In this document: positions 1,150 through 26,758 of the stretch, piece by piece
Numbering within the stretch: the stretch's first letter is position 1
Layout: every line of letters starts with the position of its first letter
Origin: a virus
Taxonomy: Duplodnaviria > Heunggongvirae > Uroviricota > Caudoviricetes
IMG/VR virus record: IMGVR_UViG_2541047766_000003
Direction: 5' to 3' (one strand)
DNA length: 42,126 nt
Notes under the pieces: generated by a model
What the model was told of the DNA's origin: nothing
The model's input: the letters and a program-made list of their open reading frames with translations, nothing else
Databases searched by the model: none
Translations under genes and position numbers: made by a program

Positions 1150-1862
1150 GCCTATAAGGCTCTCTTACCAGCCGCGCCCTAACAGGCGCACACGATCTGA
1201 CATTTGCATCCAACTTCGTTACTTACGGCCCGTAAACGGGCTGCCCGGATAGGGAATCGATAACTGCTCTCCCATTTTATCCTCTTCAAGCTGGTGCTTT
1301 ATGTAATCCTGTATCTTCGCCGTGTTCTTACCCACTGTATCGACGTAGTACCCTCTGCACCAGAACTCCCTGTTCCTGTATTTGAATTTCAAATCACCAA
1401 ACTGCTCGTAAAGCATCAGACTGCTTTTCCCTTTCAGATATCCCATAAACCCGGATACGCTCATTTTAGGCGGGATCTCCACAAGCATATGGATATGATC
1501 TGCACAGCATTCAGCTTCCAGAATCCGTACGCTTTTCCACTCACACAGCTTTCTCAAAATACTGCCTATTGCTCTACGCTTCTCTCTGTAGAACACCTGT
1601 CTTCGGTATTTTGGCGCAAAAACTATGTGATATTTACAGTTCCATCGGGTGTGCGCTAAGCTCTTTTCGTTCCCCATTGGGACCCCCTTTTGATTTCTTG
1701 TTTGACACTTGCAGTTGCCAGACCGCAAGGTGTTTTAACAAATCAAAAGGGGTTTTAATAACTGGCTCAAAGCTGAAAGCTTTCCGGAACCCCCAGCCTA
1801 GCTGGGGGTTTTCTGTGCACAAAAAACCCTCTGTAGTAACAGAGGGTTTTGTTCATTCATAG
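1150..1862 (-). mobile_element. IS200 (IS200/IS605 family) insertion; boundaries approximate
   Basis: Contains a tnpA whose product matches IS200 TnpA as recalled; two hairpins upstream of tnpA (aaaaccctctgt-agtaa-cagagggtttt and cccccagcc-tag-ctggggg) typical of the IS200 left end; size ~0.7 kb. Confidence 0.75.
1219..1677 (-). CDS. tnpA: IS200 transposase TnpA (Y1/HUH type)
   Basis: 152-aa product MGNEKSLAHTRWNCKYHIVFAPKYRRQ... with HxH motif (ADHIHMLVEIPPK); start chosen at internal Met of the track ORF 1219..1728. Confidence 0.9.
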   Translation of the reverse strand: MGNEKSLAHTRWNCKYHIVFAPKYRRQVFYREKRRAIGSILRKLCEWKSVRILEAECCADHIHMLVEIPPKMSVSGFMGYLKGKSSLMLYEQFGDLKFKYRNREFWCRGYYVDTVGKNTAKIQDYIKHQLEEDKMGEQLSIPYPGSPFTGRK

Positions 1863-2474: not shown

Positions 2475-3100
2475 ACCGCCAGCACCTTACTGGCATTGAT
2501 GTATCGCGCGCGCCGGTCGTCGATGCCGTTCCGGCCACCATTGATAATCAGAGTTACACGTGCAATATCGCCGGTATACTTCATGCATCCTTTGCTGGCA
2601 AAGAACCACGCCGCGCTACGAGCCGCGTATTCGTCCTGCGCCAGCAGTTCAGGACTCTCCAGCAGGTCAACCTTAAGACCGTTTCCACAGTCACGATAGT
2701 TATTCAAACCGGTAACCTGGATAAGCCCGCGCCCACGGTAGTTCCAGCCATCACCAGGGGCATTGTTCCCCATGCGTTTGCTGTACACCAGATTGGCAAT
2801 CGCTCTCTGGCGCTCAAGTGGCAATGGTGGTTCGCCTGCACGTCGCCCCAATGCGTTGGCCTGTCCCTGAGTGAGACGCCCAGCCCGAACAAAGTTAGCC
2901 AGTCCGCTGACGCTGTAGTTGAAATTCTCCTGCAACCGGGTGAAGCCTCCAGACTCATGCCCGACCTGAGCAATAAACATAGCCTGATCTTCTGGTTTGC
3001 TGATACCAAACTCTTTCATCGCAGAAGTTATATGCGAGAACCAGCGTGCGGCCAGTGCCTCGCTGATACCAGCAGCTCGCTGGAATTGTTTAATCTCCAT
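2471..3100 (-). CDS. Endolysin, glycoside hydrolase family 19 (chitinase-like)
   Basis: [20 protein letters not shown]...[12 protein letters not shown]...[12 protein letters not shown]; resembles the SPN1S/epsilon15-type endolysin as recalled. Confidence 0.9.
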
Positions 3101-3398: not shown

Positions 3399-3798
3399 CG
3401 TCTTTTCTCCCCGGAATTAACTCGCGTGGATTATCGGAACGGTGATAGAGCCATATACCAATACGCACAGCGACAATTGCTGACACGAATGCGCCTGCAG
3501 AGAAAACAATCCCTTCTTCAAAAGAGTCCTGCGTGATGGTAGGGATCAGGCTGGCTATGCCGATAAGAATTGATGCTGCTGGTTTGTAAAAGAGAAGGCC
3601 GCAAAGAAAGCTGAGCATCGACAGGAGCACCCGGCGACGGATGGGGTACTCTACTGCAGAGGTAACAAAAATTACCGCTCCAGCCAAAGCACCCAAAGCA
3701 ACCTCAGGAGGAACTCCTGCTATCACCGCCGCCAGAGAACTCATGCTAAGCCACTGATTTAAAGTTTCACTGGTTAGTTGAGCTGACATGTTTTCCAC
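3385..3798 (-). CDS. Putative holin/antiholin-like membrane protein
   Basis: Several predicted TM helices; first gene of the lysis cassette. Confidence 0.5.
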   Translation of the reverse strand: MENMSAQLTSETLNQWLSMSSLAAVIAGVPPEVALGALAGAVIFVTSAVEYPIRRRVLLSMLSFLCGLLFYKPAASILIGIASLIPTITQDSFEEGIVFSAGAFVSAIVAVRIGIWLYHRSDNPRELIPGRKDDGNA

Positions 3799-3991: not shown

Positions 3992-4288
3992 TCAAATAGA
4001 GAAATAAACACAAAAACAAAAAACAACAGGAACAGCAAAATCCAACAGACTTCCCACATCCCACACGCGTGGATCAAAACCTCCCCACCACGGCATGTTG
4101 ATACGTTTCCCTTTCCCAAACTTTTCTATCCAGCGATATTCTGCCTGGGTGTGTTCACGCGCAATGAAGAACGTACAACCGGCTATCGCACCGTAAGCCC
4201 AGTTTCCGGTAAAAATACCAACCAGTACCTGAGCCGCAAAAGCGCAAAGCGAGTGAAGAAATGGAGTGACATCAATGCTCTTAATCAT
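3992..4288 (-). CDS. Small membrane protein of unknown function downstream of tailspike
   Basis: ATG overlaps tailspike stop (ATGA); 2-3 hydrophobic helices. Confidence 0.4.
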   Translation of the reverse strand: MIKSIDVTPFLHSLCAFAAQVLVGIFTGNWAYGAIAGCTFFIAREHTQAEYRWIEKFGKGKRINMPWWGGFDPRVWDVGSLLDFAVPVVFCFCVYFSI

Positions 4289-6474
4289 GAAACTTCCCCA
4301 TTGGTTGAAAATATGGCTCCTCCAACGCCAAGTGTATTTCGTGTTGTGCTCAACCTCAGAGGGCTGGAGTCAGAATTAGAATATCCTGTAGCAGAAATAA
4401 AAGATCCTCCACTAATAGTCAACTGCGGAACATCGGCTATATCTGAATAAGTTCTGTCAGCAACAGTATTATTTATAGCCACATATGATCCAAAAAAACT
4501 TCTTATTGTTTGGTTTTTAACTTTACTTCCTTCAATGGTTATCCTACTACCACAGTCGGCAATAAATCCTGAATCTGCATCCAGCGTTGCATTCATAAAA
4601 GAAGCTTCAGATCTCTCTACATCAATCCATCTAATATCTTTTGTGGGATTTGCACCAAATACATGACAAATATTAGAGTTAAACCTTACACCATCTTGGA
4701 GGTGCATTAATTTTTTTATATCTGTACCCCATAGCCTTGGAAAATTAACAGATGCTCCTGCATGGCAATCAAATCCCAGCTCAGCCCCTGAGATATCTAC
4801 AGCCTTTCCTGAAATAACAGCACCAGTGTCTGCATTAACGGCTGTTCCACAATTGCGCATATCATTACCAGCAACATCAACGCAACCCGCACCATCAATA
4901 CGCACACCAAGTGCACATCCATAAAAACCTTTTTCAATATTTGGTTCAAGGACTTTACCACTTGTTTCTGCATCACTTTCTTCAACGTCATGTCGTCTTG
5001 CATCAACATATGCTGTATGAATGCAGGTTAATCCACGATATGAGCAATGTATAGTTTTATGGTCGCGTATATTAACATTTGAACCATCTCTTACATTCCA
5101 TCCTATATAACAATAGCTTGCACTTGACCCCTGAAAATCTGCTTTAACATTATAAATACAATTAACTGACGCAACCGTACTCTCTGTGCACCGTTCAAAC
5201 TTGCTTACAGGCATTGATGCCTTGACATTATTTACCAGTTGCAGGGAAGAGTATCTGCTATAAGAAAAATCACATACGTAATACCCTTCTGGCATATATG
5301 CAGCAACACTTTCCTCATCAGGAGCACATCCGGTATGATATGCACTAATTTTTGCACCAAAACTACCATGAATTCCAACGTAGAACTTTCGAGCACCTGA
5401 ATACGGATAGAAATTAAGTTCAGCTTTTTGAGTTACAATAAATGCACAAACATCGCTATCATCTCTATTTTCTTCGATCTGAATAGCAAATACAGGACTT
5501 TTTGCTGCATCGCAAATGTAAAATAAATACTTGTATTCGTAATACGTTCTAACGATTTTAGTAAACAAACGAGTGTCAGAGAAAACCACTGAGTCTTCTG
5601 ATGTTATTTTAATCCAAGACAAATCAACACCTGAACTGAATTCAATTTGATAGTTGATAATATGCCCGGTCTTAATTCTTATTTCGCAGAAAGCATTACC
5701 ACCATCCCACATAGGCCTCATTGACTGGGCTGCAATGATTGCATCTTTGAGTGTAGGGTAATCACCCCATTCGCCAACAGTAATAACAAAAGTATAATAT
5801 GAGTTAAAAACAGCGGCATTTTTGCCTTTGGATATCAACTCCTTAATCATAAAAATATTATCTTCGTAATCACAAGGAGAAATTATATCCCTCATTTTGC
5901 TTTGAAATGTTCGTTGTCTTGCCCCGCTTCCTGACGGTATAAACCAACCAAAACCACCAACAACCCCGGCGATTGCAGCATCGACATAATTACGCATTGA
6001 GCGATTATTTACAGCGTCCTGCTCAAATGATGGATCTGCAAGGTTAGAAATTTTGTTTTGCTTTGCATCGTAATATTTTGCAAGCAAAGATGGTTTCATC
6101 AATGCACGTCTGAACCACCCAAAACATCGCTGGATCAGCATCGTCAGGTAGTCAAATGCATCTTCATGAACTTCGGGGAAAAATTTTCCCTGATTGCGAA
6201 GATCAGTCTCCTGCACCACATCAAGCACACGCTCTATCGTAATTCGCCAGCCAGCAGCAAGCGGCGACGGGAGAACCACTTCACCGCCACTATAAGTGCC
6301 CGCTCCAGTTACCTTATAACCGGTATCCAGAACCAATTCTGTTACGTTCCCGTTCAGGTCAGACACCTGAACAACCAGGTCGGTTTTTTTGAAAATACGG
6401 AAGGTATACGGAAATGATGTCGTAGCTCCGTTACCAGTGTATTCGTTGTGGTCAACTTCGGTTGAGACCGTCAT
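4285..6474 (-). CDS. Tailspike / tail fiber with conserved N-terminal adaptor domain and beta-helix-like C-terminal receptor-binding domain
   Basis: N-terminus MTVSTEVDHNEYTGNGATTSFPYTFRIF... typical of enterobacterial tailspike N-domains; C-terminal two thirds Gly/Asn/Ser/Cys-rich repetitive and AT-rich. Confidence 0.85.
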   Translation of the reverse strand: MTVSTEVDHNEYTGNGATTSFPYTFRIFKKTDLVVQVSDLNGNVTELVLDTGYKVTGAGTYSGGEVVLPSPLAAGWRITIERVLDVVQETDLRNQGKFFPEVHEDAFDYLTMLIQRCFGWFRRALMKPSLLAKYYDAKQNKISNLADPSFEQDAVNNRSMRNYVDAAIAGVVGGFGWFIPSGSGARQRTFQSKMRDIISPCDYEDNIFMIKELISKGKNAAVFNSYYTFVITVGEWGDYPTLKDAIIAAQSMRPMWDGGNAFCEIRIKTGHIINYQIEFSSGVDLSWIKITSEDSVVFSDTRLFTKIVRTYYEYKYLFYICDAAKSPVFAIQIEENRDDSDVCAFIVTQKAELNFYPYSGARKFYVGIHGSFGAKISAYHTGCAPDEESVAAYMPEGYYVCDFSYSRYSSLQLVNNVKASMPVSKFERCTESTVASVNCIYNVKADFQGSSASYCYIGWNVRDGSNVNIRDHKTIHCSYRGLTCIHTAYVDARRHDVEESDAETSGKVLEPNIEKGFYGCALGVRIDGAGCVDVAGNDMRNCGTAVNADTGAVISGKAVDISGAELGFDCHAGASVNFPRLWGTDIKKLMHLQDGVRFNSNICHVFGANPTKDIRWIDVERSEASFMNATLDADSGFIADCGSRITIEGSKVKNQTIRSFFGSYVAINNTVADRTYSDIADVPQLTISGGSFISATGYSNSDSSPLRLSTTRNTLGVGGAIFSTNGEVS

Positions 6475-6932: not shown

Positions 6933-6950
6933 AGGCCGCTAGAGCGGCCT
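6933..6950. terminator. Hairpin terminator between convergent genes
   Basis: aggccgc-taga-gcggcct; T-run follows on the minus strand. Confidence 0.5.
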
Positions 6951-7677
6951 ATCGTTTCGCTTTGTGCTCGTCCCAGCACGTTTTACACCATGCCATTAAG
7001 CCATCCGCATTTTGATTATTAGGGTAAAAGCTGGTTCGTTTTCTGCGGACATTACAAATTGGGCACCACTTCATATGACGTGTATTCTTTGGGCCATCGA
7101 GACACCTTGCACACCACTTAGTCAATCCATCTGGATTTTTTGACGATTTCCTGAACTTCTCATACGGAAGGTTTATTCTGCATCGCAAGCACTGCTTGCT
7201 ACCACTTGAAACTCTGTTAGCTGATTCTTCTTTTGGCGGCGATACAGAAGGTATTCTTGCTGGCTCTGATACTGCCTGAGGTGCTTTTTTAGATGACTGA
7301 GACGATATGTCATCACCAGGGAATCTTCCATGATATGCCGGAGGCGTTGACACTCCAGGTGGAAGCTCAGCTGTAAACGGCTTTGGCTGAATCAGTTGCC
7401 TCTCTTTTGCTAACTCCTGCTGTTTATAATATGTCTGGATTACCGCACTATCATAAGCAGGAGGTGCGGAAATATTAGGCGCATTACCTCCAGTTTTTTG
7501 AAACTGAGTAGAGGTGTGTTCTATCACCTGTGTACGATTAATCGTTATCTCCCCATCTTCGGTCTTTATCGTTTTGTTATGATTAACGACCGTACGATCA
7601 GAGATCTTAGTCTTGTTCTGGTTGATAACGTAAATAATCACCGCAACCACACCAACAACTATCCAGAAAACTTCCAT
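6949..7677 (-). CDS. Membrane-anchored protein with two PPAY motifs and a tandem C-terminal zinc ribbon
   Basis: N-terminal TM helix (VFWIVVGVVAVIIYVI); APPAY and TPPAY; four CxxC pairs (CLRC, CARC, CPIC, CKTC). Confidence 0.6.
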   Translation of the reverse strand: MEVFWIVVGVVAVIIYVINQNKTKISDRTVVNHNKTIKTEDGEITINRTQVIEHTSTQFQKTGGNAPNISAPPAYDSAVIQTYYKQQELAKERQLIQPKPFTAELPPGVSTPPAYHGRFPGDDISSQSSKKAPQAVSEPARIPSVSPPKEESANRVSSGSKQCLRCRINLPYEKFRKSSKNPDGLTKWCARCLDGPKNTRHMKWCPICNVRRKRTSFYPNNQNADGLMAWCKTCWDEHKAKR

Positions 7678-7805: not shown

Positions 7806-8074
7806 ATTTACATCGCACTCCTCTTGTGTCATAGTAATCGGGCACTGGAAAAATCCAGTGCCGGGATTGGCGTCCCGGATTACTAAAAGGCGCATTCACC
7901 GCGCAAGCGGTTTTTTTATGCGTATAGCACGGCCACATTCGTATTATGGTGGGCTGTGTGGGGGCACCGAAAGGTGCGCCGGGTCCTTTTAGCCGGTTAC
8001 GCCAACCCTGCACAGTTCACCACCAACCGATTGGCGTCGGTAGTGGTGATTAACCAGACTAAAAGGTAACCACT

Positions 8075-8770
8075 ATGACAGCTACAAAAAGCACGTCCAT
8101 TTTTTCTTTCGAATCCCAAGCCGATATACGGGTAATCGTCATTAATGGTGAGCCATGGTTTATCGCTTCAGATGTTTGTCGGGCTATAGGCATAGCAAAC
8201 CATCGAGATGCTGTTCGAAAACTTGATGATGATGAGAAGGGCGTCGCTTCAACCGACACCCCTGGCGGTGAGCAAGAATCGATCATCATCTCCGAGTCAG
8301 GCCTCTACACACTGATCCTCCGCTGCCGCGATGCGGTGACACCAGGCACTATCCCCTACCGCTTTCGTAAATGGGTTACAGGTGAGGTTCTTCCTCAGAT
8401 CCGCCGCACCGGAAGTTACATTAAAAACTCGCTCCCGCAGGAAGAACGCATAAAGATGGTTGCCGACCAGGTAGCCAACGCCACGGCGTCAGCAGTAATG
8501 CAGGCGATGAAGATAGAGAACAAAACCTACAGCGCCCCGCTGAAGCCCGGCTACCGTAGCCTGATTCACTCGCCGTCTGGTGTTCTCGGCCTGACGGAAA
8601 ACTCACTGCTGATGAATCTGCTGAACCAGTTACAGGACGACGGGCACGATGTATCGGGCGCGGCGGCGGAGCTGACCACCATGTTCTGCTACATCGTCGG
8701 TGTGAGCAAATGCCTGCGTGATATCCAGACGCACGCGGAGTACATCAACGACAAAGCAGGGTTCTTCTGA
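8075..8770 (+). CDS. Bro-N domain protein, antirepressor-like
   Basis: N-terminal Bro-N signature (FSFESQADIRVIVINGEPWFIASDVCRAIGIANHRDAVRKLDDDEK); C-terminal domain is paralogous to 6670..6927. Confidence 0.8.
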   Translation: MTATKSTSIFSFESQADIRVIVINGEPWFIASDVCRAIGIANHRDAVRKLDDDEKGVASTDTPGGEQESIIISESGLYTLILRCRDAVTPGTIPYRFRKWVTGEVLPQIRRTGSYIKNSLPQEERIKMVADQVANATASAVMQAMKIENKTYSAPLKPGYRSLIHSPSGVLGLTENSLLMNLLNQLQDDGHDVSGAAAELTTMFCYIVGVSKCLRDIQTHAEYINDKAGFF

Positions 8771-8778
8771 CGGGCGGT

Positions 8779-8797
8779 GGCACAGGGATGTGCCTTT
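8779..8797 (+). terminator. Hairpin terminator after the Bro-N gene
   Basis: ggcaca-ggga-tgtgcc followed by ttt. Confidence 0.4.
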
Positions 8798-8842
8798 AAA
8801 TAATTCTGTACAGATTGCAGACTGTGGGTGAATAGCGTACTA

Positions 8843-8857
8843 TTACCTTAAAGGTAA
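8843..8857. promoter_or_regulatory. Operator-like palindrome TTACC-TTAAA-GGTAA overlapping RBS region of 8870..9037
   Basis: Identical 15-mer to the 7698 site; ends 13 bp before the ATG. Confidence 0.5.
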
Positions 8858-8869
8858 AGGAGGCGCGAT

Positions 8870-9037
8870 ATGACAGCGTTGAAAAATCGTACTCAGCACA
8901 ATAAACAAGCCAAGCAATGCTGGGATGTCATTGGAAAAGTTATGCTTGGCCGCGCAAGCAAAGAGCGCGACAAGGATATGGTTTACCAGACAGGAACATC
9001 TTTCAGCGACTTCAAGGCGGCATTTCGCTCCAAATAG
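8870..9037 (+). CDS. Small basic protein (55 aa), unknown function
   Basis: Strong RBS aaggagg 7 nt before ATG; not in the ORF track because under 60 aa. Confidence 0.5.
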   Translation: MTALKNRTQHNKQAKQCWDVIGKVMLGRASKERDKDMVYQTGTSFSDFKAAFRSK

Positions 9038-9057
9038 AAGCACATCAGGAGTTTTCC

Positions 9058-9498
9058 TTGAAGTTTAACATTAGAATATCTAATAGTTTTCTACATGGGG
9101 AAAGCAACACCCCTTTCGCTGTAGACGGACCTTTCCTTACTGATGATGAAATAAAAATCATACAAAGTTTTTTAGAGGATGTTGCCAATGGAAGGGCGCT
9201 TGTTGGAAAAAACAAGCCCTCGTGGGTTGATGATAACCATGATAAAATTCCCGGCTCAGACAATTATGAGCAAGAGAATTATTGGCATTATCATTGTGGG
9301 CCAACATGGTATCCAAACACATTTAAGAATTATACCATTAACTTAAATTTCAACCCTGGCGGAAGGCATTCTAATGAATGCATTCATTATGCAAAAAATG
9401 ATAATGAAATTGTCATTGTTGGATTTTCAAGAGAACACATACCTTTCCTTTCATCAGATGGAAACAACAATCCGCTTTTTAATGATGAAGAAGAATAG
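9058..9498 (+). CDS. Hypothetical AT-rich accessory protein (~146 aa), probable TTG start
   Basis: Open frame has no internal Met after the track start at 8917; RBS caggag 5 nt before TTG 9058; AT-rich; acidic C-terminal tail. Confidence 0.45.
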   Translation: MKFNIRISNSFLHGESNTPFAVDGPFLTDDEIKIIQSFLEDVANGRALVGKNKPSWVDDNHDKIPGSDNYEQENYWHYHCGPTWYPNTFKNYTINLNFNPGGRHSNECIHYAKNDNEIVIVGFSREHIPFLSSDGNNNPLFNDEEE

Positions 9499-9518
9499 CC
9501 CGCGCTGCGGGCTTTTTT
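9498..9518 (+). terminator. Rho-independent terminator
   Basis: gcccgc-gct-gcgggc followed by tttttt. Confidence 0.65.
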
Positions 9519-9590
9519 GTGGACGAAACAAAAGTCAGTGCTACACTCATTGACGCCACATTGAGGTGGCTTATAGATGGAAATTTCACA

Positions 9591-9752
9591 ATGAAAAAAG
9601 CATTTGCTGCACTGTTCGTTTTATTGTCTCTGGTAGCTTCAACTCAGGCCTTTGCCGGTCGTTGTCAGCACGACAGCGACACTGCTGCTGACGGCTCCCG
9701 CTGCGGTGGGCGTTCTGCGGATTCCCGCCCTGGCGGCGGTGGCATTCGTTAA
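9591..9752 (+). CDS. Small secreted peptide (signal peptide plus ~31-aa Gly/Arg/Asp-rich mature region with 2 Cys)
   Basis: MKKAFAALFVLLSLVASTQAFA then GRCQHDSDTAADGSRCGG...; weak RBS. Confidence 0.4.
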   Translation: MKKAFAALFVLLSLVASTQAFAGRCQHDSDTAADGSRCGGRSADSRPGGGGIR

Positions 9753-26681: not shown

Positions 26682-26758
26682 GTGGCATTAGCTCAGTTGG
26701 ACAGAGCAACCGCCTTCTAAGCGGTTGGTCGCAGGTTCGAATCCTGCATGCTACGCCA
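26682..26758 (+). tRNA. tRNA-Arg (anticodon TCT)
   Basis: Cloverleaf folded by hand: acceptor GTGGCAT/ATGCTAC, D-stem GCTC/GAGC, anticodon stem ACCGC/GCGGT with loop CTTCTAA, T-arm GCAGG-TTCGAAT-CCTGC, encoded CCA. Confidence 0.85.

Follow-up and report, generated by a model that had tools for sequence, protein, structure and literature searches.

A two-gene cassette in an epsilon15-like prophage

We analyzed a 42,126-nucleotide (nt) viral sequence (IMG/VR record IMGVR_UViG_2541047766_000003, referred to here as the window), a Uetakevirus (phiV10/epsilon15-like) prophage of Escherichia coli, in which a short AT-rich segment carries two rightward-oriented genes, designated A and B, followed by a transcription terminator (Table 1). 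The segment lies just downstream of an isrK-C4-antirepressor operon, and the cassette region shares 99.7% identity with phage phiv142-3 and 97% with HEMP4. Protein B has a predicted RelE/ParE toxin fold, its gene is paired with that of a small upstream partner across enterobacterial prophages, and we propose that the two probably form a toxin-antitoxin-like module.

Gene A codes for a 55-amino acid (aa) basic protein (pI 10.1, net charge +7), with an AAGGAGG ribosome-binding site (RBS) at 8857-8863, 6 nt from its ATG; both the small basic protein and its strong RBS had been recognized in an initial annotation of the sequence. Gene B codes for a 146-aa acidic protein (pI 4.9) ending in NDEEE, in agreement with the acidic DEEE tail described earlier, and is preceded by an AGGAG RBS (9047-9051), 6 nt from a TTG start codon; purine-rich sites of comparable kind are also found 5′ of the start in its relatives. 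The RefSeq calls from the Prokaryotic Genome Annotation Pipeline (PGAP) are exactly these two coding sequences.

The initial annotation proposed the TTG start on the grounds that gene B has no in-frame methionine codon. There is indeed none inside the gene, but an in-frame ATG lies upstream at position 8917, giving a 193-aa open reading frame (ORF) that we considered as gene B and ruled out from the start positions in relatives. These begin at the same position as the window TTG, with TTG, GTG, or ATG as the codon, and the reading frame is closed by a stop codon directly 5′ of that position in loci L034-L038, and three codons 5′ of it in locus L023, which is 95% identical; the ATG at 8917 is therefore not the start of B. 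The proposed TTG start thus agrees with the relatives, the in-frame stops, and the RefSeq call, and this weak start codon is kept among the enterobacterial loci. Cluster P0006 (195 aa) is apparently an over-long call from an upstream ATG equivalent to that at 8917. The GenBank record of phiv142-3 (L001, MN187550) leaves gene B unannotated, and has a 52-aa ORF in another frame at 3489-3647, corresponding to window positions 9188-9346.

Gene B was also described as being far more AT-rich than the surrounding phage DNA, and this is borne out by its composition: its GC content is 35.6%, with 30.6% GC at third codon positions, compared with 48.9% for the window as a whole, and only 0.4% of 441-nt segments have a GC content as low.

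Table 1. Features of the cassette, occupancy of its slot in related prophages, and other elements of the window
Feature	Coordinates	Strand	Description
Gene A, putative antitoxin	8870..9037	+	Partner motif at about residues 25-53: LGR28 ... Y39 ... S44-F-S-D-F48 ... A-F
Gene B, putative toxin	9058..9498	+	TTG start
Hairpin GGCACA-GGGA-TGTGCC	8780..8795	+	Just past stop codon of Bro-N antirepressor gene; left slot anchor
Sigma-70-like promoter candidate	8815..8843	+	-35 TTGCAG 8815-8820, 17-nt spacer, -10 TACTAT 8838-8843
Palindrome TACCTTAAAGGTA, TACCTT-A-AAGGTA	8844..8856	.	Directly 3′ of the -10 element
Intrinsic terminator AGCCCGC-GCT-GCGGGCT + TTTTTT	9497..9519	+	Overlaps TAG stop of B; right slot anchor
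Slot in phiV10	L106, about 2570-2640		Empty; junction sequence diverges
Slot in TL-2011b	L002, 3219-3918		59-aa gene and 181-aa protein with Pfam YafO_toxin (PF13957) match, E 8e-6, annotated as YafO-family toxin
Slot in E. coli PK6	L108, 1904-2729		108-aa gene and 170-aa protein, RefSeq annotation YafO-family toxin
Slot in EC.W1-9	L105, 1693-2494		Unrelated pair (phrog_10654 and membrane protein) with own promoter
IsrK Hfq-binding small RNA	7842-7917	+	Rfam, 76.7 bits; 5′ of antirepressor gene
C4 antisense RNA	7942-8027	+	Rfam, 77.7 bits; 5′ of antirepressor gene
Bro-N antirepressor gene	8075..8770		Upstream of the slot
52-aa membrane-protein gene	9594..9752	+	Conserved; right slot flank
242-aa protein gene	6949..7677	-	phrog_6762
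Low-GC region	4201-6222		Down to 34.7% GC
729-aa ORF	4285..6474	-	Coincides with the low-GC region
tRNA-Arg gene	26682-26758	+	Anticodon TCT
STnc490 Hfq-binding small RNA	1687-1810	-	Full-length match (146 bits), near left end

Protein B represents a family with a predicted RelE/ParE fold

Protein B matches only PHROG 5954, which is of unknown function. A first search identified 34 protein clusters of relatives in Enterobacterales and Pasteurellaceae, all named hypothetical, and an exhaustive profile search extended the family to 118 clusters at 50% identity. Members of the family come overwhelmingly from viral contigs and prophages; we found no description of the family in the literature. Across 64 members sharing 21-54% identity with B, residues H77, H79, and H127 are invariant, and G50, N52, K53, Y78, H110, Y111, and F130 are at least 90% conserved, with the recurring motifs GKNKPSW, WHYHxG, TSxxxIHY, and HxPF. 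Invariant histidines in so divergent a family point to catalysis.

Structure prediction, which the initial annotation had recommended, yielded a confident AlphaFold model of B (pLDDT 91.9, pTM 0.87; alignment of 29 sequences), in which a strand and two helices are followed by further strands. This is the RelE/ParE (BECR) toxin fold, a small alpha/beta domain whose antiparallel sheet packs against helices at the N-terminus, with insertions; the invariant H77, H79, and H127 and the near-invariant K53, H110, and Y111 lie on or beside the predicted strands 75-79, 108-113, and 117-124. A Foldseek search of the Protein Data Bank (PDB) returned the same top-ranked proteins as the structural comparison, with non-significant E-values (best 0.32), and nothing significant was found in BFVD; these structural scores do not prove homology between B and any one family.

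The codons for the conserved GKNK motif include a run of six A residues (9207-9212), and several relatives (for example, P0129, P0133, P0120, and P0115) are frameshifted or truncated at or just past this motif. These frameshifts may reflect slippage-prone inactivation of a toxin, or sequencing error.

A small partner gene with a conserved C-terminal motif lies upstream of gene B

Protein A belongs to PHROG 8607 (phrog_8607), also of unknown function, and no family was matched in Pfam, NCBIfam, or PADLOC; its AlphaFold (AF2) model, of low confidence (pLDDT 71, pTM 0.33), has one long and one short helix. Synteny was examined in 96 loci around B relatives and in some further loci, using an iterated hidden Markov model (HMM) search for A homologs. 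An A homolog is present directly upstream of B in all 44 of the 44 enterobacterial loci, which include epsilon15-like prophages and the nin region of lambdoid Klebsiella prophages, the partner being 102 aa long in the latter; relatives of A in other genera were matched with HMM E-values of 1e-15 to 1e-26. At several loci, gene A ends immediately or almost immediately 5′ of the B start codon, a spacing suggestive of translational coupling. Gene B therefore has an adjacent, co-oriented, small partner gene, an arrangement that speaks to pairing, not to neutralization.

Loci of Pasteurellaceae, Neisseriaceae, and Aeromonas have another, longer gene in this position, with a product of 69 to 211 aa. 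In the partners sampled, the last ~30 residues contain two hydrophobic residues, x, [G/S/P], and R, followed after 6-9 residues by an aromatic residue and [S/T]-x-[D/E]-[D/E]-[F/I/L], and when 29 diverse partners are aligned, the arginine corresponding to R28 of A does not vary. Pasteurellaceae partners that are 185-194 aa long (phrog_18778; L049-L099, for example L072 2435-2992) resemble A only in these last ~30 residues, and carry at residues ~22-37 a hydrophobic segment (Kyte-Doolittle 1.7-2.0 over 15 residues) with an AxA-like end, like a signal peptide. Four more distant metagenomic B relatives have a 50-60-aa gene directly upstream in three instances and a 300-aa gene in one; the C-termini of these partners resemble the motif to varying degree, with the clearest ending SFEDFQKWMIENDS. 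Judging from these sequences, a partner that varies widely around one short conserved segment is what an inhibitor binding through a short peptide would look like.

Three of the loci have unusual neighborhoods. In Pasteurellaceae bacterium LFhippo2 (L008 1-4363), the genes for the B homolog and a 159-aa partner directly follow that for a polyvalent protein of 2935 aa, in which MuF_C, ART-PolyVal, and LPD domains are present, a context unlike a prophage moron slot. One distant metagenomic pair (L111 280-3163) adjoins genes with faint Eco57I and N6_Mtase matches, a single observation that suggests a defense-island-like setting, and another (L109 606-2378), also a single observation, adjoins a phage-integrase-like gene.

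The omission of B from the phiv142-3 record, with its short ORF called in another frame, could be taken to indicate that A and B arose by chance, or are the remains of decaying genes, in AT-rich filler DNA. This explanation is refuted by the conservation data, with B relatives down to 21% identity in 118 clusters, their invariant residues and confident fold, and the significant HMM matches of A in other genera; both genes also have an RBS and RefSeq annotation, and we consider the probability of this explanation to be negligible.

The cassette occupies a slot with exchangeable cargo

The slot is preceded by a phage P1-type immunity region that includes the Bro-N antirepressor gene, with Rfam matches to IsrK and C4 RNAs on its 5′ side. 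The layout resembles immI of phage P1, in which C4 RNA controls the antirepressor. The right flank is a conserved gene for a 52-aa membrane protein. This protein, which is assigned to phrog_14503 ('membrane associated protein', moron category), has a signal-peptide-like N-terminus, MKKAFAALFVLLSLVASTQAFA; the hexamer TTGACG, which resembles a -35 element, lies 5′ of its gene at 9552-9557, and the gene is absent from phiV10.

Junction alignment shows that the hairpin at the left and the terminator at the right are the fixed junctions of cargo-bearing slots. From alignment with PK6 and TL-2011b the left junction of the cargo is at about 8860, and the cassette-specific stretch extends only over ~8860-9493. 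The initial annotation suggested that the operon was a horizontally acquired moron, and comparison with related prophages supports its horizontal exchange: phiV10, a close relative, has nothing in the slot, whereas TL-2011b, PK6, and EC.W1-9 carry other two-gene cargo there, the first two with different YafO-family toxin pairs. Absence from phiV10, deviant GC content, and the terminator are all features of a moron, with the promoter being a weak match to consensus. We found the cassette in 77 (~1.4%) of 5426 complete E. coli genomes.

The hairpin, which is possibly a weak terminator of the upstream operon, is kept in TL-2011b, PK6, and EC.W1-9, with the EC.W1-9 sequence diverging directly after it. 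Between the hairpin and gene A there is a sigma-70-like promoter candidate, predicted from sequence, that agrees with the consensus at 8/12 positions and scores under the reporting threshold of our scan; a promoter-like site is thus present as initially described, but it is weaker than was implied. The strong terminator of the initial annotation is readily apparent as a 7-bp stem (9497-9513) with six G-C pairs, followed by six T residues, and it is kept behind the differing cargos of TL-2011b and EC.W1-9. No known RNAs were found in 8843-9518 in Rfam.

The palindrome that follows the promoter candidate had been interpreted as an operator controlling it, an idea that we reject on two grounds. 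Comparable palindromes (6-bp arms, spacer 0-3) occur 59 times in the window, no more than expected by chance. In the slot alignment, the palindrome is identical in PK6 and differs at two positions in TL-2011b, prophages that each have cargo of another kind; the block containing the promoter candidate and the palindrome (8797-8858) is common to the window, PK6, and TL-2011b, and is present in 309 of 5426 complete E. coli genomes, mostly with other cargo. Because the same block is present in prophages with different cargo, the palindrome is a feature of the slot and not of genes A and B. The locus also differs from an autoregulated toxin-antitoxin operon in that the palindrome is not cassette-specific and no DNA-binding domain was detected in A.

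Genes A and B as a probable toxin-antitoxin-like module

We propose that A and B form a type II toxin-antitoxin (TA)-like module, with B probably being an mRNA endonuclease, and assign this interpretation a probability of about 0.6. It is based on the RelE/ParE fold and enzyme-like conservation of B, the pairing with A, the gene order, the YafO cargo in the same slot, the motif layout that B shares with YafO-like proteins, and the moron features of the cassette. The initial annotation listed a TA system among its guesses; the fold of B and the conserved small upstream partner back this guess, with no sequence link to a toxin family. The pair is most likely an unclassified sequence family of a known kind of system, and both the moron and TA ideas are supported by fold and synteny.

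We infer toxicity, neutralization, RNase activity, and a biological role for the pair along the following lines. The two genes would be transcribed from the weak promoter of the slot, with transcription stopping at the terminator (9519), and the weak TTG start of B together with possible translational coupling would keep A in excess of B. Protein B, a RelE/YafO-like endoribonuclease, would cleave mRNA, probably while it is on the ribosome, by means of an active site rich in histidine that we predict from the alignment to comprise H77, H79, and H127, with K53 and Y111. Protein A, being small and mostly helical or unstructured, would bind B through residues ~25-53 (R28, the aromatic residue, and S-F-x-D-F) and block it. 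In a lysogen, the module may serve to keep the prophage stable or, when A becomes depleted, to abort superinfection by other phages.

Several observations weigh against this interpretation. Searches with B found no match in Pfam (E ≤ 1), NCBIfam, or PADLOC; 64 diverse relatives gave only scattered chance hits in Pfam (E ≤ 0.1), with no relevant family; and a sequence search of the PDB with the B profile likewise gave chance hits only. There is no match of B to any of the 13 RelE/ParE Pfam monodomain toxin families listed in a recent review (PMC11980606), and alignment of the B family with the TL-2011b YafO-like family using hhalign brings the motifs into register at an E-value of 0.089 and a probability of 0.6% (second E-value, 0.52). 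The conserved core accounts for only part of B, ~80 of its 146 residues. No DNA-binding domain is recognizable in A, either in Pfam or in the low-confidence model; the polarity of charge is the reverse of that in canonical RelBE, with an acidic B (pI 4.9) and a basic A (pI 10.1); and the signal-peptide-like Pasteurellaceae partners are a poor fit to a cytoplasmic antitoxin. The earlier statement that no family could be assigned holds at the level of sequence for Pfam, NCBIfam, PADLOC, and the 64 relatives, but a fold, RelE/ParE, can now be assigned.

Some of the same observations would suit a non-toxic role, in which B is a RelE-fold regulator or a ribosome- or RNA-binding factor, A is its co-factor, and the likeness to TA systems is structural only. 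No significant sequence or profile link joins B to a validated toxin, B is acidic, unlike the typical ribosome-binding RelE toxins, and some distant partners look exported. We nonetheless find this unlikely. The preservation of three histidines through so much sequence divergence is indicative of catalysis, B is strictly paired with partners that have in common only a short motif of binding type, as in inhibitor-effector pairs, and the weak TTG start of B is kept in enterobacterial loci.

Alternatively, B could be an infection-phase phage effector, an RNase or an RNA- or ribosome-binding protein directed against the host or rival elements, with A acting as a chaperone or immunity protein; the pair would then be comparable to BECR-fold effectors that accompany phage polyvalent proteins. 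The Pasteurellaceae pair directly downstream of the polyvalent protein described above is compatible with this explanation, as are the predominance of the B family in viral contigs and prophages and the description of MuF-associated phage BECR effectors (bioRxiv 10.64898/2026.08.28.747851, citing Iyer et al. 2017). However, we observed the polyvalent-protein neighborhood in only one lineage, neither B nor its relatives are matched by a PBECR model of Pfam, and the pair in the window is in a promoter-plus-terminator slot by an immunity region rather than in an operon of virion or early genes; the same slot carries YafO-family toxin pairs in related prophages. We judge this explanation to be unlikely.

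A more elaborate version of the TA-like interpretation, which we offer tentatively and as similarly improbable, is that A and B belong to a previously unclassified RelE/BECR effector family in which the inhibitor is recognizable only by a C-terminal binding motif of ~20-30 residues, grafted onto varied N-termini, such that the partner is a modular sensor that releases a ribosome-targeting RNase. The partner N-termini would then range from the bare basic helix of the window to domains of 160-300 residues, some of which begin with a signal-peptide-like segment. If so, the partner would sense, for example, envelope or infection signals, and the system would be one of sensor-coupled abortive infection rather than plain addiction.

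Implications

The main interest of the pair is that of an unannotated RelE-fold family with a motif-defined partner, in a slot where one toxin-like cargo is exchanged for another. Should B prove to be a toxin, its family is one missed by Pfam, NCBIfam, and PADLOC, to be placed beside the 13 listed RelE/ParE-type families of type II modules. Relatives are present in prophages of Enterobacterales other than E. coli, and in those of Pasteurellaceae, Neisseriaceae, and Aeromonas. The partner motif may aid in finding cognate inhibitors that have no recognizable domain. A single slot with a fixed promoter and terminator that swaps at least three toxin-like pairs also provides a natural comparison set for the effects of cargo on the lysogen, and is suited to questions such as prophage retention and exclusion of other phages.

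Other features of the window

Elsewhere in the window, the 242-aa protein encoded to the left of the immunity region is of unknown function and has two C-terminal cysteine-rich repeats, with weak HNH/endonuclease VII-like and Lar-like zinc-finger PHROG matches and a Pfam Stc1 match below threshold. The low-GC region over the 729-aa ORF is a second one, larger than that of the cassette. At the position of this ORF, the annotation of related phages has a gene for a tail fibre or tail protein, and from this and its low GC content a horizontally exchanged receptor-binding gene is plausible. The window also includes a tRNA-Arg gene and an STnc490 RNA.

Comparison with known systems

As a moron, the cassette is typical in having a promoter-like site, a strong terminator, and deviant GC content, and in being absent from phiV10 and replaced elsewhere. 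It is unlike other morons in that the promoter and terminator belong to a conserved slot, and only the coding cargo is swapped.

Thirteen Pfam families of monodomain BECR-fold toxins are recognized in type II modules (PMC11980606), and five additional families of BECR proteins are defined in a 2026 preprint (bioRxiv 10.64898/2026.08.28.747851). For one of these, BECR-Tox2, the immunity gene lies downstream and the context is that of a Menshen defense system (bioRxiv 10.64898/2026.08.28.747851); the A-B pair is set apart from it by description, with the partner upstream and a different context.

YafO is a member of the RelE superfamily that cleaves translated mRNA (PMC2814082, PMC11980606), and cleavage of mRNA on translating ribosomes has been shown for both YafO and HigB (PMC2814082). 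The YafO, YafQ, and YhaV modules are listed with the small gene first and the RelE-fold gene second (PMC11980606), and the A-B pair has the same order as YafN-YafO. YafO-family pairs fill the same slot in TL-2011b and PK6, and the TL-2011b pair also combines an acidic effector with a basic partner. Protein B further shares with YafO the invariant layout [W/R]-H-x-H, T-S-x3-h-h-Y, and a late H: the pattern WHYH...TSxxxIHY...H in B corresponds to RHTH...TSDxxLVY...AH in the YafO-like slot proteins, and is invariant in both alignments. There are also clear differences. Neither B nor any of its 64 relatives matches PF13957, and B has the GKNKPSW motif and a long insertion between core strands two and three. 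Pairwise BLASTP between B and the TL-2011b YafO-like protein is not significant, and A has no similarity to the small protein of that pair. Protein A is also unlike the Phd/YefM-type antitoxin YafN, having no Pfam match and only one long and one short helix. We do not claim B as a member of the YafO family; since the profile comparison is not significant and only the motif layout agrees, B is YafO-like in layout but not a demonstrable member.

The comparison with PaaA2-ParE2, which is associated with an E. coli O157 prophage, raises the alternative that B is a ParE-like gyrase poison of the same fold, with A as a short PaaA2-like antitoxin that also has no DNA-binding domain. ParE2, however, scores below the RNase members in structural comparison with B, which keeps an RNase-like set of histidines, and the cassette has no third regulator gene; we regard a gyrase poison as very unlikely.

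Relative to RelBE, DinJ-YafQ, YefM-YoeB, and HigBA, whose toxins are RelE/ParE-fold endonucleases that cut mRNA in a ribosome-dependent manner, protein B has 7-19% identity in structural alignments and matches no family model, and it is acidic and ~60 residues longer; the antitoxins of these systems carry a ribbon-helix-helix, Phd, or helix-turn-helix DNA-binding domain, whereas A does not. By analogy, the systems that appear closest to the A-B pair in working principle are YafNO and the group of RelBE, DinJ-YafQ, YefM-YoeB, and HigBA.

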